From Candidatus Moanibacter sp. (GTDB lineage: Bacteria; Verrucomicrobiota; Verrucomicrobiia; Opitutales; UBA2987), in the NCBI GenBank assembly GCA_965215885.1, contig CBDCEW010000096.1:65401-129400 (forward strand): 64,000 nucleotides of DNA. The letters are read 5' to 3'. Positions 33,001 through 39,000 of the stretch are shown in pieces. The position numbers were made by a program. Numbering within the stretch: the stretch's first letter is position 1; every line of letters begins with the position of its first letter.

Positions 33001-36000
33001 ATATCCTCCTCCGTGGCGGAGATATAGTGTCGCTGTAATTCGCGCGGGAATTCGGCGGGGCTAAAATTCAGTTTCATATTTGAATCCGAGAATTACTGGG
33101 CCCGCTAAACACGCGAAATGACGCGAAACCGGATCGTGCGTATTTGAGGGCTGAAAAGTTGGGAGGGGAGATTAATTTTCTACATACTGTTCTATTTTCC
33201 ATTTCGCCTCGTTTCACCGCGAGGGTAGGAAGCTCGCTTGCGAGCGATTCGAACTTATGTGTGGCCCCATCGGCCGCAAGCGGCCTTCCTACGCCTGACG
33301 GTCTTAGAAATTCCATTTCGCTTCATTTCGCGTGTTTAGCGGGCAAACATTCCTCGAGATCTCGCAAGTCCAGCTCAGATAGATCAGGACTAAATGCTTC
33401 GTGAGGCAATCCGAGACGAAAATGTGCTTAGCAGCTGGCCGGCATAGGGCTGAAGGCTCTCGTGCTCGAAGCAGTAGTGCATGTCTTGAAAGCGGTCCCG
33501 AAACCTGGCCACTTCGTCGGCTACGCTTCTGCCTTTGACCGCATCCGCGAAGAGCTCCGCAAAGGCCTCAAAGTCATTCTTCTTCATCCCGAACCGGGTC
33601 ATCTCCTGAACCCCTGTCCGTATTCCGGAGCTGGCTGTAAAACTCTCGTCGCCGGGAAGGGCCTGAAAGTTGACGATGATGTTATTTTCCTCGAGGGTCA
33701 GCGCCATTGCACAACCCTTTGAATAACCGACATTTACAATCACCTGGTGAGTCTCGGTGAAGTCGAGCGCGGGGTCGCCCTCAACGTGCACGCCGTGATT
33801 GTTAAGGGCCCGTGCAAACGCCTTTGCATTGGCCAGGACCTGTTTCTGGTAGGGCTCTTTAAATGTGTTCATTTCAATCGCAGCCATTAGCAGGCCAAGA
33901 AGAGTGCCCAGATGGTGGTTGCTTGTCATTCCCGGAAAGGAGCGGCGACGGATCGCCCTCCAGAGTTCGTGCTCGGGAGCACCTTCCACGAAATTAGCGC
34001 CAATGACTCCGCGCTGGGTACCGAAAAACGTCTTATGGGTGGAGCCTGTGACAATGTCGGCGCCTTCTTCAAACGGTTCCTGAAAATGGCGGCCAATCAA
34101 GCCGAGGACATGGGCCATGTCGTACATGATGATAGGCCTGGATGCTCGTCCCTGGACGGCCTTTCGAATTTGGGCGATAGGCTCCGGGTGTAGAACCATG
34201 CTTTTACCGAATATCATCAGTTCGGGATCCACCGTATCGAGCAGGCGGACTGTTTCGGCTACGTCGATTTTGAAGGGGTTGTCATGGCAGACGGGAAAAT
34301 TGATGACAGCAAATTTCTCGGTGACGGGATTTTTCGCCACGTAGTCACGCAAGGCCCCTATCGTCTGAGAACTCAGATGGCCGCCTTTGCCCAGGTGGTT
34401 GTTCATGACCAGGCGCATGCGACGCGCCTCACGGCGACGGTCGACCCGGTTGATGAAGTCTACCATCGCGCTGAATACAGCCATATTCGACATCTGACCG
34501 CTGACGGGGCGAAGTTCCACCAGGTCGCAGCCCATGAACTTGCGCATCTCCTCCGTAAGCTGGTTTTCCACCCAGGCGATGAAGTCGATTCCCTGGTAAT
34601 AGTAGATCTCTTCACTGAAGGCAGCCAGGAGTTCTTTGTGTTCGGCGTAGCGTCCCACGGGATCCGATACCTGGAGCAACCGAACGAGCGGGGAAGGCGT
34701 CATCTCGGAAGGTATCAGGTTGACACATCTCCGCTGCCGCCACTCGTGATTCTCAACGCTTCTGGTGAGAAGCAGGCGCACGCTGTCAAGGCCCTCTTCC
34801 ACTGCCTTCTCTCTAACCGGCATCTCGTGGTCGAGTGTGATGGGGTGGAAAAAGGGCGGCGCTTCAGAACGGCCGTGCCAATCGACGATGCGGGCCTTGA
34901 GGGGACGATTTCGCACGATGACATCGACTTCCTGGCCGGGGTGCAGGTCCGTATCCAGGTTGGCGAGGGCGATGGCGCGCCGGCCGGACTCCTCAGTTAT
35001 CCTCATGGTCGCGCCGTCCCCTTCAAAGATCCAGTACGGTATCATCGTGCCGCTTGTGACCACTCCAACTTCGCGCTCCCCTATGCGAACCGCGTCACCG
35101 TGGCGGGCTATTCCGCGATCCAACAGGGCGACCGGCTGATTACGGCGAGGAAGGATCTCAGGGTCGACTTGCAGACCTTTACACAGCTTTCTGACCTCCT
35201 CGAATTGGCGCGTCAGCGCCTGCCGGCCGATGTAATCACCCTTGCTCGCGGAAAAGCTGATCCCGGCGCTTGCCAGTGGAAAGGTGTAAGCGGGCGTCTC
35301 ATTCCCGGCCGGATCCAGACCATATTCGTTTCCATAGAGGGGGAGCCCGGCCTCCAGCCGAAGGGTGTCCCTGGCGCCCAAACCGACTGCCAGAATCCCT
35401 TTCTTCGCGCCCTGCTCGATAATGCGCGTCCACAGGCTTTCGATTTCCCCTGCCGATAGAAAGACTTCAAAACCGATCGGTTCACCGGAGTATCCCGTGC
35501 GGCATATCCGTACGCCGGCGCCGGCGATGACAGCTTCGGACAGCCGGTTATGAAAGGGTTCCGGGAGATCACCCTCTTCAAGCAGCTCTTCGAGAATTCG
35601 CCGTGAGAGCGGCCCTTGAATCGAAAACATCGCTATGCTCCGCGTAACGTCCTCGATTAACACGTCCTGAAAGCCGGCCAGCTGCGCCTGGAGATGCTCC
35701 CAGTCGGTTTCGTGATTTGCTGCGTTTACGACGAGAAGATAATCGTCGTCGGCAAACCGGTAGAGATAGGCGTCGTCAAGGAGGCCGCCTCGCTCATTGG
35801 GGATGAGCGTGTATTGCGCCTGCCACGGTCCCACCGCTCCCACGTTACTGGAGAGAACATGTTGAAGGTAGGCCACCCGGTTTCCCCCGCTGATGCGAAT
35901 CCGCCCCATGTGGCTGACATCAAACAGTCCTCCGGATTTGCGGGTCGCCAGGTGCTCCTTGATTATGCCGTTGGCATACTGCAGGGGCATCTCCCAGCCC

Positions 36001-39000
36001 CCAAATTCCACCATCTTCGCCCCGTTCGCACTGTGCCATCCGTGCAGGGGAGTCTTCCTTAATCCGCTCATTGTTGATCGTTCGGGATGCTTAAATCGTG
36101 GAGAGAAGGCAAATGGAAAATATATAAAGTGGTTGGACAACCATTGTAACTTAGAAGAGGCGCAATCTTCGCCGGATGTGAAAAGAGCTGGGCATTTGGA
36201 AGCCATAAACCGTAGAAGTAGTGTAGAGAATGACGTAGCGAAAATTCGGATTCGGACTGGCCGGATGACGAATGCACGCTACTCTAAGGGGCTTTTTACG
36301 AGAAAATCGCGCGCAGGGCGCTGTTAGTCAGATTATTTCACAGAATAAGCGGACTAGCCCGGACGTTTCACAAACCTTCTACTGCGACGACGGATCTCAC
36401 CGCGTGTCAATGCCTTACCTTGTCCGGCGACCTCAGAGGGTTTCAATCCCGGCAGGCCGGGATCGCCCGCCGTGCTTCGAAAAGGCATTGACACGCAACG
36501 ATCTACGCCGTCTCGCTACGAAGTGTGTGAAACCTCCGGGCTAGAAAGCGAAACGAGGAAGTTTCAAAATGGAGACTACTCGAGAATTCCGAAAACTGAT
36601 TCGCAATTTAGATGCACAGGATTTTGTTGCATCCAACATGATTACACTCTTGCCCGGCACTGCTGTTGATACTCAACAGCAAACGGCTCAAGCCTTTTCT
36701 GATAAGTGGAATCGATTCGATTATGACTCTCCGGAATTCGAGAAACTAGCGAGGATGCAGAAGGCGTGGTATCTGGATCTGTATGGTTTTTCAGAAGAAT
36801 CCGCGTTGGCCAGGTATCTACAGAATTGTCAGGTAATTTTGGATGCGGGCGCCGGTATGTGCTACAAGGCGGCCTGGTTTGCAGAACTGAGCCCGGCATC
36901 ATTAGTTGTGGCTGCGGATGTTTCCGATTCACTTCTCAGAGCTGCCGAGTACTACAAGCGTCTGAATAATCTGATCTTTGTCAGGTGTGATATCGGTCAG
37001 ATGCCATTCTTTGAGGATGGACTATTTGACTATGTATCCTGTGATCAGGTGATTCACCATACAGCGGATCCCTTCAAGACTTTTCGAGAATTGGTCCGTG
37101 TTACTGGATCTGGCAAGGAACTTTCAATATATGTTTACCGTAAGAAGGCTCTACCGATAGAATTAGTAGACGACTACTTTCGGGAGTGCAGCAAGACACT
37201 TGATCACAGCAAACTCATGGACCTCTCTCGGCAGATAACAGAATTGGGCCGGCTTTTGAGTTCAATTGATGTGGAGGTGGATTTCCCGGAGATCCCGGCA
37301 TTGGGCATTGAGGGTGGAAGGATGCCACTACAGCGATTCATCTACTGGAATTTCCTCAAGTGTTTCTGGAACGATGAACTCGGGTATCACAATTCGCTAA
37401 TGACAAATTACGACTGGTATGCCCCCCTCACAGGCTTTTCGATATTCAGAACAGGAGTTCAAGAACTGGATCAGAGTGGAAAAATTGAAGGAAGTCCACT
37501 TTCACAAAGAACAAGCCTGTTACAGCGGGCGCTTCTCGAAGCCGTCAAGAAAGGCAAATTGAGATGGCTCGATAACTTTCCTGGGCTCTTTCGCATTGGG
37601 TACTTGCCTGGGAATGAGCCCTTACGGACAGGGAGCTTGGGCGGATAAGCTTCAGGGTGATCTTTCCACCCATCTCGAGATGGCAGTGCCCTATCTGGCA
37701 GAGACGGCAGTCACCTACTATAACCGCTTTTATGGGAAAACATGCCAGGGACCTCGCCGGAAAAATGCTTGGCATGATTCCAGTTTGGACCTTTACTGAA
37801 AACCGAACGTTGTTGTGTGGCTTATTGGCTCTCGCTACGTGCGCCGCTTCGGTCCGCGTCACCGGCCGAGTCCGGCATGATTGCCGGAGTTGTCAGCGCA
37901 TATCTTGAGGCGCTCGTTCGCCTCACCTTGCGTGGTCCTGGAGGGCAGGAGGAAGAGATTGAAACGGTCATCGACACGGGATTTGATGCTGCACTCAGCC
38001 TTCCTCCCACACGCATCGCGGCCCTTGGTCTACCATGGCGGAGATGCGGACGTGCGTTGTTGGCAGACGGTAGCGAGAGTCTGTTTGACATCTACGAGGC
38101 CACCATCGTGTGGGACGGCACACCTCGACGCATCGCTGTGGACGCAGCTGACACCGACCCACTCCTGGGCATGGCCCTGCTCTATGGCTACGAACTGACG
38201 TTGCAAGCTGTTGAAGGTGGTCGTGTGATTATCCAAGCGTTGCCGTGCTTTCATTCGTTGCCATTCAAATCTTGGCGTGTCAGAATAGAAGGCTTCGAAC
38301 CAATCAATGGAGGCAAAGGCTATTGATCAACTTCTCCAGGAGAAAAGGAAACCAACAAAAACTATCGAGGTTCCCGTATATCCATATGAACCAGATATCG
38401 TCTAAAACCAGGGGGTCGAAGTCAACGCCGGCTGACGCTGTGGTGGCTCAATTTGACGTTCGGTCAGAGAGTTGAGAGATGGCGGAATACGGTGAGTGGA
38501 ATCGCAAAGGGGCAACCCTCAGCGAAGTGACGGCGAAGAAAGAATATGGCGTGGACCGGGAGTTCATTGTGAAGGGTATTCAGGCCGGCAAACTCGAATA
38601 CCGGGAAGGGGCGATCTGTGTGTTACGCCTCAGCTTAATCCGTGCACGAATTAAGCTGAGGCGTAACACACATGTGGGTCGGTCGGTCGCCCGATGAAAT
38701 GAATTGACGGCAAGATGAGTTTGTGTGAGTGTTCACACATGCCTACAAATTTATCCATCGACGACAGGCTCCTCAATCGAGCGTTGCGGATCGGAGGAAG
38801 GAAGACGAAAAAAGACACTGTCAATGAGGCGCTTAGGGAATATGTCCGACGGAGAGAACAAAAGAAGGTCATCCGGCTTTTTGGAACTGTCGAAGACGAC
38901 GGGTATGACCCGAAGAAATTCCGGAGGCGTTGAGGCGTGGTCATCGTCGATTCCGATGTATGGTCTGAAGCCTTCAGAAGGAAGGCCAATAGATGGAGCC

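Follow-up and report, generated by a model that had tools for sequence, protein, structure and literature searches.

In the genome of Candidatus Moanibacter sp. (Opitutales, family UBA2987), a glycine-cleavage T protein (GcvT) and a divergent domain of the serine hydroxymethyltransferase (SHMT) family are joined in one natural chain. This is a real fusion, and its product is probably a bifunctional enzyme in which both activities work on tetrahydrofolate (THF). That prediction draws on two intact-looking domains within a single chain and on the absence of a separate T protein from this genome and from almost all other carriers. Methylene-THF is common to GcvT and SHMT in glycine catabolism, photorespiration and the reductive glycine pathway. 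The fusion is not new chemistry, and it has been named before in one database record: GenBank MBP1633054.1, [quoted passage not shown], is a family member with 64% identity over the SHMT half. Its name is annotation only, and most other named members are labelled GcvT or aminomethyltransferase. A literature search, mostly of non-subscription papers without supplements, found no paper on a GcvT-SHMT fusion, which proteome tables of sulfate reducers could nonetheless list; nor is it mentioned in the available parts of PMC1971073 and PMC10327494. The stretch of DNA analysed here (the window) comprises 64,000 nucleotides, and its features are collected in Table 1.

Table 1. Features of the window that bear on the fusion
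Feature	Position	Strand	Basis or remark
gcvP, glycine decarboxylase, both subunits in one chain	30108..33077	-	only GcvP in genome
Dispersed element with 29-nt terminal inverted repeats, between fusion and gcvP	33100..33344	.	49 blastn lines in genome
gcvT::SHMT fusion gene	33390..36071	-	893 aa; Pfam/NCBIfam profiles, AF2 model
Divergent archaeal-type SHMT domain, ~residues 428-885	33417..34790	-	PF00464, PDB match, residue table, tree
Connector, ~residues 411-427	34791..34841	-	low sequence conservation, nearly fixed length
GcvT (aminomethyltransferase) domain, residues 1 to ~410	34842..36071	-	TIGR00528, PDB match, residue alignment
gcvH	47738..48124	-	TIGR00527 above cut-off; only H protein found in genome (tblastn)
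fhs, formate-tetrahydrofolate ligase	48277..50037	+	NF010030 above cut-off; only copy
soxB, soxD, soxA, soxG-like gene	50530..56665	+	soxB, soxA, soxD below curated cut-offs
gmaS-type (type III) glutamate-ammonia ligase	56655..57989	+	TIGR03105 657.8 vs 469.6

The fusion occupies a single stop-free frame. An ATG farther upstream, at 36206, would add 45 residues that are absent from homologues, and full-length matches mostly start at query residues 1-9. Pfam places GCV_T at 9-249, GCV_T_C at 365-397 and SHMT at 439-839, and the junction is spanned without a gap by contigs of two other public runs (record 32 of run X7 covers 33448-36148 with 131 differences, record 23 of run X5 covers 34084-35381 with 25). 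The one-chain fusion and its wide spread, both asserted in a preliminary description of this DNA, are thus borne out: of 8000 proteins scored in a search with the junction region, 5383 reached E<=1e-20, SHMT was present in all of the 120 junction matches listed and GCV_T in 119, and homologues of about 886 residues occur in many phyla. Cultured carriers include Desulforhopalus singaporensis DSM 12130 and Brotocaccenecus cirricatena. An Rfam scan of the window matched no family, and a sigma-70 scan gave no promoter-like site where 2.4 were expected by chance. The sole RNA run (X1) contained a fraction of 0.07 of the words and a single 310-nt contig, lying in the T part; we do not take this as a sign of expression.

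The T domain scores as a true GcvT, with 243.7 bits against TIGR00528 (cut-off 235.85) and 305.6 against NF001567 (cut-off 300), and its best PDB match is B. subtilis GcvT (1yx2, E 5e-60). The residues matched to E. coli GcvT are M55, D99, D100, N116, Y194, E202, R234 and R323; of these, all 73 full-length named homologues have the Asp pair, the Asn, the Tyr, the Glu and both Arg without exception, in keeping with the motif conservation claimed earlier. When the roles given in human numbering in the available part of PMC9551070 are mapped to E. coli, a step made in the present analysis, the catalytic Asp, the THF-binding Met, Tyr and Glu and the GcvT-specific Arg are kept in 72-73 of these homologues. 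The partner proteins are also encoded: gcvH and gcvP in the window, LpdA-like matches (candidates for the L protein) and LipA matches elsewhere in the genome. With GcvT itself (EC 2.1.2.10; PDB 1yx2, 1woo, 3a8i) the fusion has a common fold (Foldseek TM 0.85-0.92 over the target) and gcvH and gcvP as usual neighbours; it differs by the C-terminal SHMT domain and by three family-specific insertions or extensions at about residues 290-305, 347-364 and 398-412. Dimethylglycine oxidase (1pj5), sarcosine oxidase alpha and TMAO demethylase (Tdm) likewise join a GcvT-fold domain to a second catalytic domain. There the partner supplies formaldehyde to the folate domain, whereas both domains of the fusion are predicted folate enzymes. 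Channelling has reportedly been found in dimethylglycine oxidase.

The SHMT domain keeps the PLP lysine (K680) within STHKTFFG, as the preliminary description held, together with Y475, E477, Y491, Y492, H565, D651 and R818. By the site lists in the available part of PMC7916883, 88-89 of 89 fusions conserve eight of the 12 same-subunit PLP residues as well as Y55, E57, Y65, Y64, G125 and L127, and the PF00464 fold-type I domain and its PLP lysine are accompanied by Ser35, His126, Asp200, His203, His228, Lys229, Arg363, Tyr55, Glu57 and Tyr65. Five of the six folate-site residues (Leu121, Gly125, Leu127, Asn347, Glu57, Tyr64) are kept, Leu121 as Leu or Ile. The sixth, E. coli Asn347, is replaced by Gln in 89 of 89 fusions (Q803 in the window's protein), and the Ser99 position is Gln in 88 of 89; at the Thr226, Arg235 and Gly263 positions the fusion has the residues commonest among its archaeal-type relatives. 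Against NF000586, which all 14 control genomes pass, four archaea among them, the domain reaches 252.5-255.3, below the cut-off of 335. On these sequence comparisons it is a divergent subfamily outside NF000586, probably with an SHMT-like function.

Its closest solved relative is the SHMT of M. jannaschii (PDB 4bhd, 4uqv), the best SHMT fold match and the best sequence match (4bhd, E 4e-56; 194 bits vs at most 93 for bacterial GlyA). The two have the STHKTFFG, FPG..SNHH and G.QE motifs in common; the archaeal enzyme is unfused and only ~33-35% identical, and the fusion differs from it by Tyr at position 64, by Gln at Asn347 and by three insertions. Stand-alone members of the subfamily, which lie after rpiB and before purD-purE, have these insertions too, so they are not purely an interface for the T domain. 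Canonical bacterial GlyA (E. coli, PDB 1dfo) has largely the same PLP and folate site residues and probably catalyses the same reaction as the fused domain, but is only ~25% identical. In an IQ-TREE analysis of 34 rows, the non-canonical ones chosen by likeness to the query and the named archaeal ones being P0364 (Nitrososphaerota) and the P0369 cluster (Bathyarchaeota), the fusion groups with archaeal SHMTs apart from canonical GlyA (100/100), and a clade uniting it with canonical GlyA is rejected (AU test, p-AU 0.000129). The label "archaeal-type" is thereby supported by tree and PDB search alike. It remains a branch label that does not establish an archaeal origin, because the subfamily forms a long branch of its own (100/100) and, among named unfused relatives, the nearest one comes from a bacterium (Ca. 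Schekmanbacteria). The stand-alone clade is nested among the fusions in one tree (92, unstarred) and basal without support (83/27) in the 34-row tree.

From known biochemistry, the T domain would take the aminomethyl group from lipoylated GcvH, itself loaded by GcvP, release ammonia and yield 5,10-methylene-THF. The SHMT domain, as a PLP dimer through K680, would join this methylene-THF to a second glycine to form serine and return free THF; the net, reversible reaction would be 2 glycine + NAD+ + H2O = serine + CO2 + NH3 + NADH. The folate might pass directly from site to site or by short-range diffusion. In the window's protein the connector has a pLDDT of 65-69. Of 188 full-length proteins examined, 182 could be measured, and in 152 of these the distance from the APP motif to NLIPSE is 47 residues. 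The AF2 model of the window's protein (pLDDT 88.8, pTM 0.85) and that of a second member built from a separate alignment (pTM 0.86) suggest a fixed arrangement of the two domains, which probably dock in a fixed way. Channelling between the two sites is a hypothesis. Its fullest form is a rigid "glycine-serine synthase" with two active sites, in which T is docked on an SHMT dimer, methylene-THF is transferred directly, the change of Asn347 to Gln tunes folate release and, in the host family, methylamine carbon is assimilated through reversed glycine cleavage; as a whole we think this rather unlikely to hold.

It is improbable that, behind a true GcvT domain, the PLP domain is a folate-independent aldolase or transaldolase, resembling ObiH or fluorothreonine transaldolase (FTase), or acts on some other beta-hydroxy amino acid. 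The fold-type I domains of these enzymes are SHMT-like and akin to the M. jannaschii SHMT; in the PDB sequence search the ObiH family (7k34) ranks second (E 1e-29), ahead of bacterial GlyA, and FTase too has an SHMT-like domain fused to a partner, according to the available part of PMC7162832. The score under the NF000586 cut-off and the Gln at Asn347 suit such a reading, as does the finding that 32 of 50 carrier genomes keep a canonical GlyA, so that the fused domain is usually not the sole SHMT; transaldolases, moreover, often carry an SHMT annotation (PMC10495429, as far as that text is available). However, ObiH aligns significantly only from domain residue 164, and its N-terminal loop lacks the YAE...YY that is invariant in the fusion, where the Tyr55/Glu57/Tyr64/Tyr65 loop, unaligned in ObiH, is retained. 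The FTase profile TIGR04506 gives 131.5 against a cut-off of 650, the fusion partner of the domain is a folate enzyme, and stand-alone members of the subfamily lie in an rpiB-purD-purE context.

The bifunctional reading also agrees with the surroundings of the gene. Among the named loci, a sample made up of the best 80 of 586 stretches, gcvH lies near the fusion in 38, gcvP in 36 and lpd in 21; the flanks are short at many loci, and the locus scans may lack close relatives of the window. Together with lipoate genes, gcvH, gcvP and lpd are the conserved partners, and the general context is glycine cleavage, not methylamine. Genomes were searched for 50 of these loci (the 50 carrier genomes), and 49 of them, like the window's genome, have no separate GcvT above cut-off. 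A glycine riboswitch immediately precedes the fusion in each of the 11 Bacillota carriers, and none was found in the four fused genomes of the host family; such riboswitches activate glycine cleavage genes (PMC4201829, available part), and since this points toward cleavage, the Bacillota enzymes would run in that direction. Some loci have serine genes beside them (sda in L027 and L029, serB in L053 and L065, serC in L068). A reductive glycine route to pyruvate via SdaA is not general: PF03313, which also takes in proteins related to SdaA, was found in 0 of 9 host-family genomes and 26 of 50 carriers.

Within the host family the fusion occurs in the window's genome (G000) and, as had been reported, in three of eight others (G002, G004, G006). 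A count of one fused genome among 30 of the order did not stand: none was found in 32 other genomes of the order or in 300 drawn from the class, and an 887-aa frame in G029 was rejected as an ordinary gcvT within a long spurious frame. Canonical gcvT and glyA are both present in the five unfused genomes and both missing from the four fused ones; no SHMT in the fused four exceeds the NF000586 cut-off, whereas four of the unfused genomes exceed 600 bits, the fifth having contig-end fragments. One fused genome, G002, is a single contig and 98% complete. There is also a second SHMT-like gene; in the two copies aligned, those of G000 and G004, Glu57, Tyr64 and Asn347 are missing. In G002, G004 and G006 no gcvT is left at its native place between a CNNM gene and gcvH, and the fusion comes after gcvH. 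The gene would thus have been acquired laterally and have displaced both gcvT and glyA. Because three of the four fused genomes belong to one genus they are not independent; two acquisitions are hinted at by the window's protein not being sister to those of G002 and G006 (support 84). Threonine-aldolase-family genes are present in the fused genomes, so the loss of glyA does not force activity of the fused SHMT domain. The serA gene, which bears on serine auxotrophy as a possible driver, is above cut-off in all eight other family genomes and not in G000 (90% complete).

The preliminary description had placed the fusion in a methylamine setting, and within the host family this stands. An operon gcvH-ttuC-fusion-fhs-soxB(D)AG-gmaS is found in G002, G004 and G006, the gene earlier called tdh being a tartrate dehydrogenase (TIGR02089, 481.8 vs 470.4). 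Both gmaS and fhs are present in the four fused genomes, against one of five (gmaS) and none of five (fhs) of the unfused; mgsABC-like genes occur in G004 and in G000 (a cluster on contig C103), and Tmm and Tdm in G006. The soxBDAG-like genes, of which soxG is named by position and a weak GCV_T match, probably encode N-methylglutamate dehydrogenase rather than sarcosine oxidase because gmaS adjoins them, as in the N-methylglutamate pathway. In this family the fusion is accompanied by Gma/Mgs/Sox-like genes leading from methylamine to methylene-THF and by those for Fhs and FolD, so a further role in fixing amine-derived C1 into serine is probable. To explain the whole fusion family as a dedicated part for passing C1 units from methylamine oxidation to glycine and serine is a different matter. 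The one SAR324-like carrier tested (G047) does have gmaS, but sox genes lie near the fusion in none and fhs in one of the 80 named loci (best 80 of 586 stretches), sox, fhs and gmaS in none of 80 metagenome loci, and gmaS occurs in two of the 50 carrier genomes; the Bacillota genes stand under glycine riboswitch control. In G000 itself the fusion adjoins gcvP, as described before, and lies 12-22 kb from gcvH, fhs, soxBDAG and gmaS, with fhs-sox 12 kb away on the opposite strand; the dispersed element may interrupt its co-transcription with gcvP. So weakened, the methylamine explanation is quite improbable at family level, and the operon is a local arrangement of the host family.

M. jannaschii SHMT uses tetrahydromethanopterin. 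That its relative in the fusion might use such a carrier instead of THF and bridge two pterin pools could be argued from this likeness and from the changed folate-ring contact at Asn347, but is extremely improbable: MCH is absent from five of five host-family genomes (three archaeal controls were positive), FolD is found in all five, Fhs is present in the fused genomes, position 64 is Tyr in the fusion and Leu in M. jannaschii, and the THF site in the T domain is of the canonical kind. An assembly artefact, or a recent read-through of two adjacent genes, has a negligible chance, as nothing was found in its support beyond a contamination of 5.5% in G000, and it is refuted by the crossing contigs and by the junction-region and ~886-aa homologues, isolates among them; the GC3 also matches that of gcvP and carB (0.68).

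The bifunctional reading also exposes a gap in annotation. Since GcvT is the usual label of the gene and the SHMT half does not reach the NCBIfam cut-off, SHMT is overlooked where the fusion is the only candidate, as in 18 of the 50 carriers, whose completeness is not established, and in the four fused host-family genomes. A natural, rigid-looking fusion makes cofactor channelling directly testable in cultured carriers; if the rigid module is real, channelling between T protein and SHMT could be tested in a natural system encoded by one gene, and the reductive glycine pathway could be engineered with the fusion as a ready-made part.

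The gcvT-SHMT gene of this genome (G000) encodes one chain in which Pfam places GCV_T at residues 9-249, GCV_T_C at 365-397 and SHMT at 439-839; it scores above the cut-off of the NCBIfam GcvT model (243.7 vs 235.85) and below that of the SHMT model (252.5 vs 335). The chain, whose structure and context are direct observations, is quite probably a bifunctional GcvT and SHMT, with activities and a direction that we infer. Among solved structures, the T domain comes closest to genuine GcvT proteins such as B. subtilis 1yx2 (E 5e-60), and its predicted model matches true GcvT structures with TM 0.85-0.92. 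All 73 full-length named homologues share, without change, the residues equivalent to E. coli Asp97, Asp98, Asn114, Tyr189, Glu196, Arg224 and Arg293 (numbered from Met1); passages of PMC9551070 describe, in human numbering, a catalytic Asp, Met, Tyr and Glu residues that bind folate, and a GcvT-specific Arg, and the mapping from human to E. coli residues was made here. A search for a separate GcvT covered 50 carrier genomes from among the 80 named loci: none above the cut-off was present in 49 (the exception being G067), and the match in G062 was the N-half of its own fusion, on another contig. Since the G000 genome likewise yielded none above the cut-off, the fused domain would appear to be the glycine cleavage system's T protein.

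The preliminary description had called the SHMT domain archaeal-type, a placement sustained by both the PDB search and phylogeny. M. jannaschii SHMT was best in the PDB search (194 bits), followed by the ObiH transaldolase (106 bits, C-terminal part only) and bacterial GlyA (93 bits or less). In a 34-row IQ-TREE analysis, whose non-canonical rows were selected by likeness to the query, the fusion's subfamily stands apart on a long branch (100/100) within a set of non-canonical SHMTs, including named archaeal ones, and the AU test rejects its grouping with canonical GlyA (p-AU 0.000129). Among named relatives without the fusion, the nearest is bacterial; on these sequence comparisons, the term holds as a label for placement, not origin.

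Passages of PMC7916883 list the PLP- and folate-site residues of E. coli SHMT. In that numbering, 88-89 of 89 fusions retain Ser35, Gly98, His126, Ser175, Asp200, His203, His228, Lys229 and Arg363, and likewise Tyr55, Glu57, Tyr64, Tyr65, Gly125 and Leu127. The Thr226, Arg235 and Gly263 positions carry the residues commonest in archaeal-type relatives, the Ser99 position is Gln, and folate-site Asn347 has become an invariant Gln. The fused domain fails the NF000586 cut-off, which 14 of 14 control genomes pass. This failure and the changes at Ser99 and Asn347 are what chiefly speaks against a plain SHMT and could be read in favor of a folate-independent aldolase; set beside the retained residues, we consider that alternative improbable. 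Unfused members of the subfamily, with their own start identified at 12 loci, lie in some cases 3' of rpiB and 5' of purD-purE and in others beside purA; linkage of rpiB to glyA is typical of glyA. Their Atlas cluster is commonest in Ca. Aminicenantota.

In a bifunctional chain, the T domain would convert GcvH's aminomethyl group to methylene-THF plus ammonia; methylene-THF would be combined with a second glycine on the SHMT domain, yielding serine and giving back THF. AlphaFold gave a pTM of 0.85 for the fusion (112 sequences) and, from 66 separately aligned sequences, one of 0.86 for its homologue in B. cirricatena, and a fixed domain arrangement is predicted because these values exceed the 0.5-0.6 or so that, by our own reasoning, freely moving halves should give. 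The connector, measured motif to motif, has 47 residues in 152 of 182 measurable proteins; its nearly fixed length and the pTM values fit domain docking, and channelling would be a hypothesis beyond this.

Among the 80 named loci (the best 80 of 586 stretches), gcvH accompanies the fusion in 38, gcvP in 36, lpd in 21, fhs in one and sox in none; gcvH and gcvP each occur in 23 of the 37 named loci with at least 3 kb of flank on both sides. Of the 80 metagenome loci, 22 have gcvH nearby and none has fhs, sox or gmaS. Genome-wide, fhs is present in 41 of the 50 carrier genomes and gmaS, above its cut-off, in two. A glycine riboswitch lies directly upstream of the fusion in all 11 Bacillota carriers; according to passages of PMC4201829, such elements activate cleavage genes under glycine excess. 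The serine genes sda, serB and serC adjoin some fusion loci. G000, unlike its relatives, has genome-wide no full-length serA above the cut-off and no large gltB match, which may reflect the missing 10% of the genome.

An operon gcvH-(tdh)-fusion-fhs-sox-gmaS and a methylamine setting had also been proposed. The gene order stands in three members of the family UBA2987 (G002, G004 and G006), one of which (G006) has Tmm and Tdm, but "tdh" proves to be tartrate dehydrogenase; its G000 homologue (72%) is on contig C103. In G000 the fusion sits with gcvP, 12 kb from fhs, and the palindromic element between fusion and gcvP is MITE- or REP-like. The operon could suggest a methylamine-dedicated role for the whole fusion family, but the counts for sox, fhs and gmaS near the fusion, and for gmaS genome-wide, make this most unlikely: the methylamine link is local. 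FolD is present in five of five family genomes and MCH in none of the five; the carrier in the family is therefore THF, and methanopterin is scarcely credible.

Features at the fusion locus and at related loci
Feature	Position	Strand	Remark
gcvT-SHMT fusion	window 33390-36071	minus	single open frame, 893 residues
Dispersed palindromic element	window 33100-33344		between fusion and gcvP; 29-nt terminal inverted repeats; 49 blastn lines in genome
Second dispersed palindromic element	window 36354-36544		other flank of fusion; 215 blastn lines in genome
Dense run of PhyH-family dioxygenases, sulfatases, transposases (ISAs1, ISNCY, IS256-like) and a BKACE enzyme	window 3913-29770
Tartrate dehydrogenase (TIGR02089)	L103:8097-9146		between gcvH and fusion in three family genomes
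GmaS/mgsABC-like cluster	L155:1900-11303 (G000:C103)		second GmaS-like ligase, mgsABC-like genes, flavin oxidoreductase, ammonium transporter
Second SHMT-like gene of G000	L116:8558-9769 (G000:C64:18557-19771)		without Glu57, Tyr64, His126, Phe257, Asn347
Another SHMT-like subfamily	L109:6139-7374, L110:6225-7460, L111:5778-7013		in G002, G004, G006
Stand-alone subfamily members	L217:9543-13300, L228, L233, L213		rpiB-SHMT-purD-purE or purA context
805-aa protein of genome G074	L249:573-2990		weak SHMT-like domain (56 bits) fused to an N-terminal part resembling, by eye, inositol-1-phosphate synthase

That the join is an artefact is ruled out by gap-free contigs of two other runs that span it and by the many two-domain homologues. 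The preliminary description was right that both enzymes share one chain, and right that the fusion is widespread: with residues 250-700 as query, 5383 of 8000 scored matches reach E<=1e-20, and 119 of 120 among the matches listed have both GCV_T and SHMT. Loci in the named-genome scan (best 80 of 586 stretches) fall, isolates included, in Desulfobacterota, gut Bacillota, Acidobacteriota, Planctomycetota, Riflebacteria and Gammaproteobacteria, and further named members in SAR324 and Woesearchaeota. Two Woesearchaeota proteins (P0319, P0347) are divergent fused versions, and a 1030-aa SHMT plus GCV_T architecture (Atlas rank 11) is commonest in Chloroflexota.

Canonical glyA and gcvT are lacking in the four fused family genomes (G000, G002, G004 and G006), of which G002 is a single contig of 98% completeness; both are present in all five unfused ones, the glyA of G008 as two contig-end fragments. 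The gcvT gene adjoins a CNNM gene and lgt in G001, G005 and G029; in G002, G004 and G006 this slot is without gcvT and the fusion follows gcvH. Because the fusion was not found in 32 other genomes of the order or in 300 drawn from the class, the pattern points to lateral gain within the family, displacing both gcvT and glyA. Three observations count against the fused domain doing the job of GlyA: three of the four fused genomes belong to one genus, their threonine-aldolase-family genes are another source of glycine, and 32 of 50 named carriers also keep canonical GlyA. Each fused family genome has a second SHMT-like gene; those of G000 and G004, the two aligned, lack Glu57, Tyr64 and Asn347. 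The one in G000, whose nearest cluster is named from Bathyarchaeota, is probably a PLP aldolase-type enzyme. The further SHMT-like subfamily of G002, G004 and G006 adjoins an ArgE-like deacylase and reaches 222-224 bits against a cut-off of 650 with the fluorothreonine transaldolase model; a new transaldolase is possible.

Both GcvT and SHMT are known enzymes, other C1 enzymes also contain a fused GcvT-fold domain, and GenBank annotation MBP1633054.1 already names this GcvT-SHMT fusion. No study of it was found in the searched literature, which included passages of PMC1971073, PMC10327494, PMC10495429 and PMC7162832. The present analysis adds the test that sets methylamine aside as the general context of the fusion, the invariant Gln at the SHMT folate site, the stand-alone subfamily members in a glyA-like context, and the displacement of both ordinary genes, gcvT and glyA, within one family.
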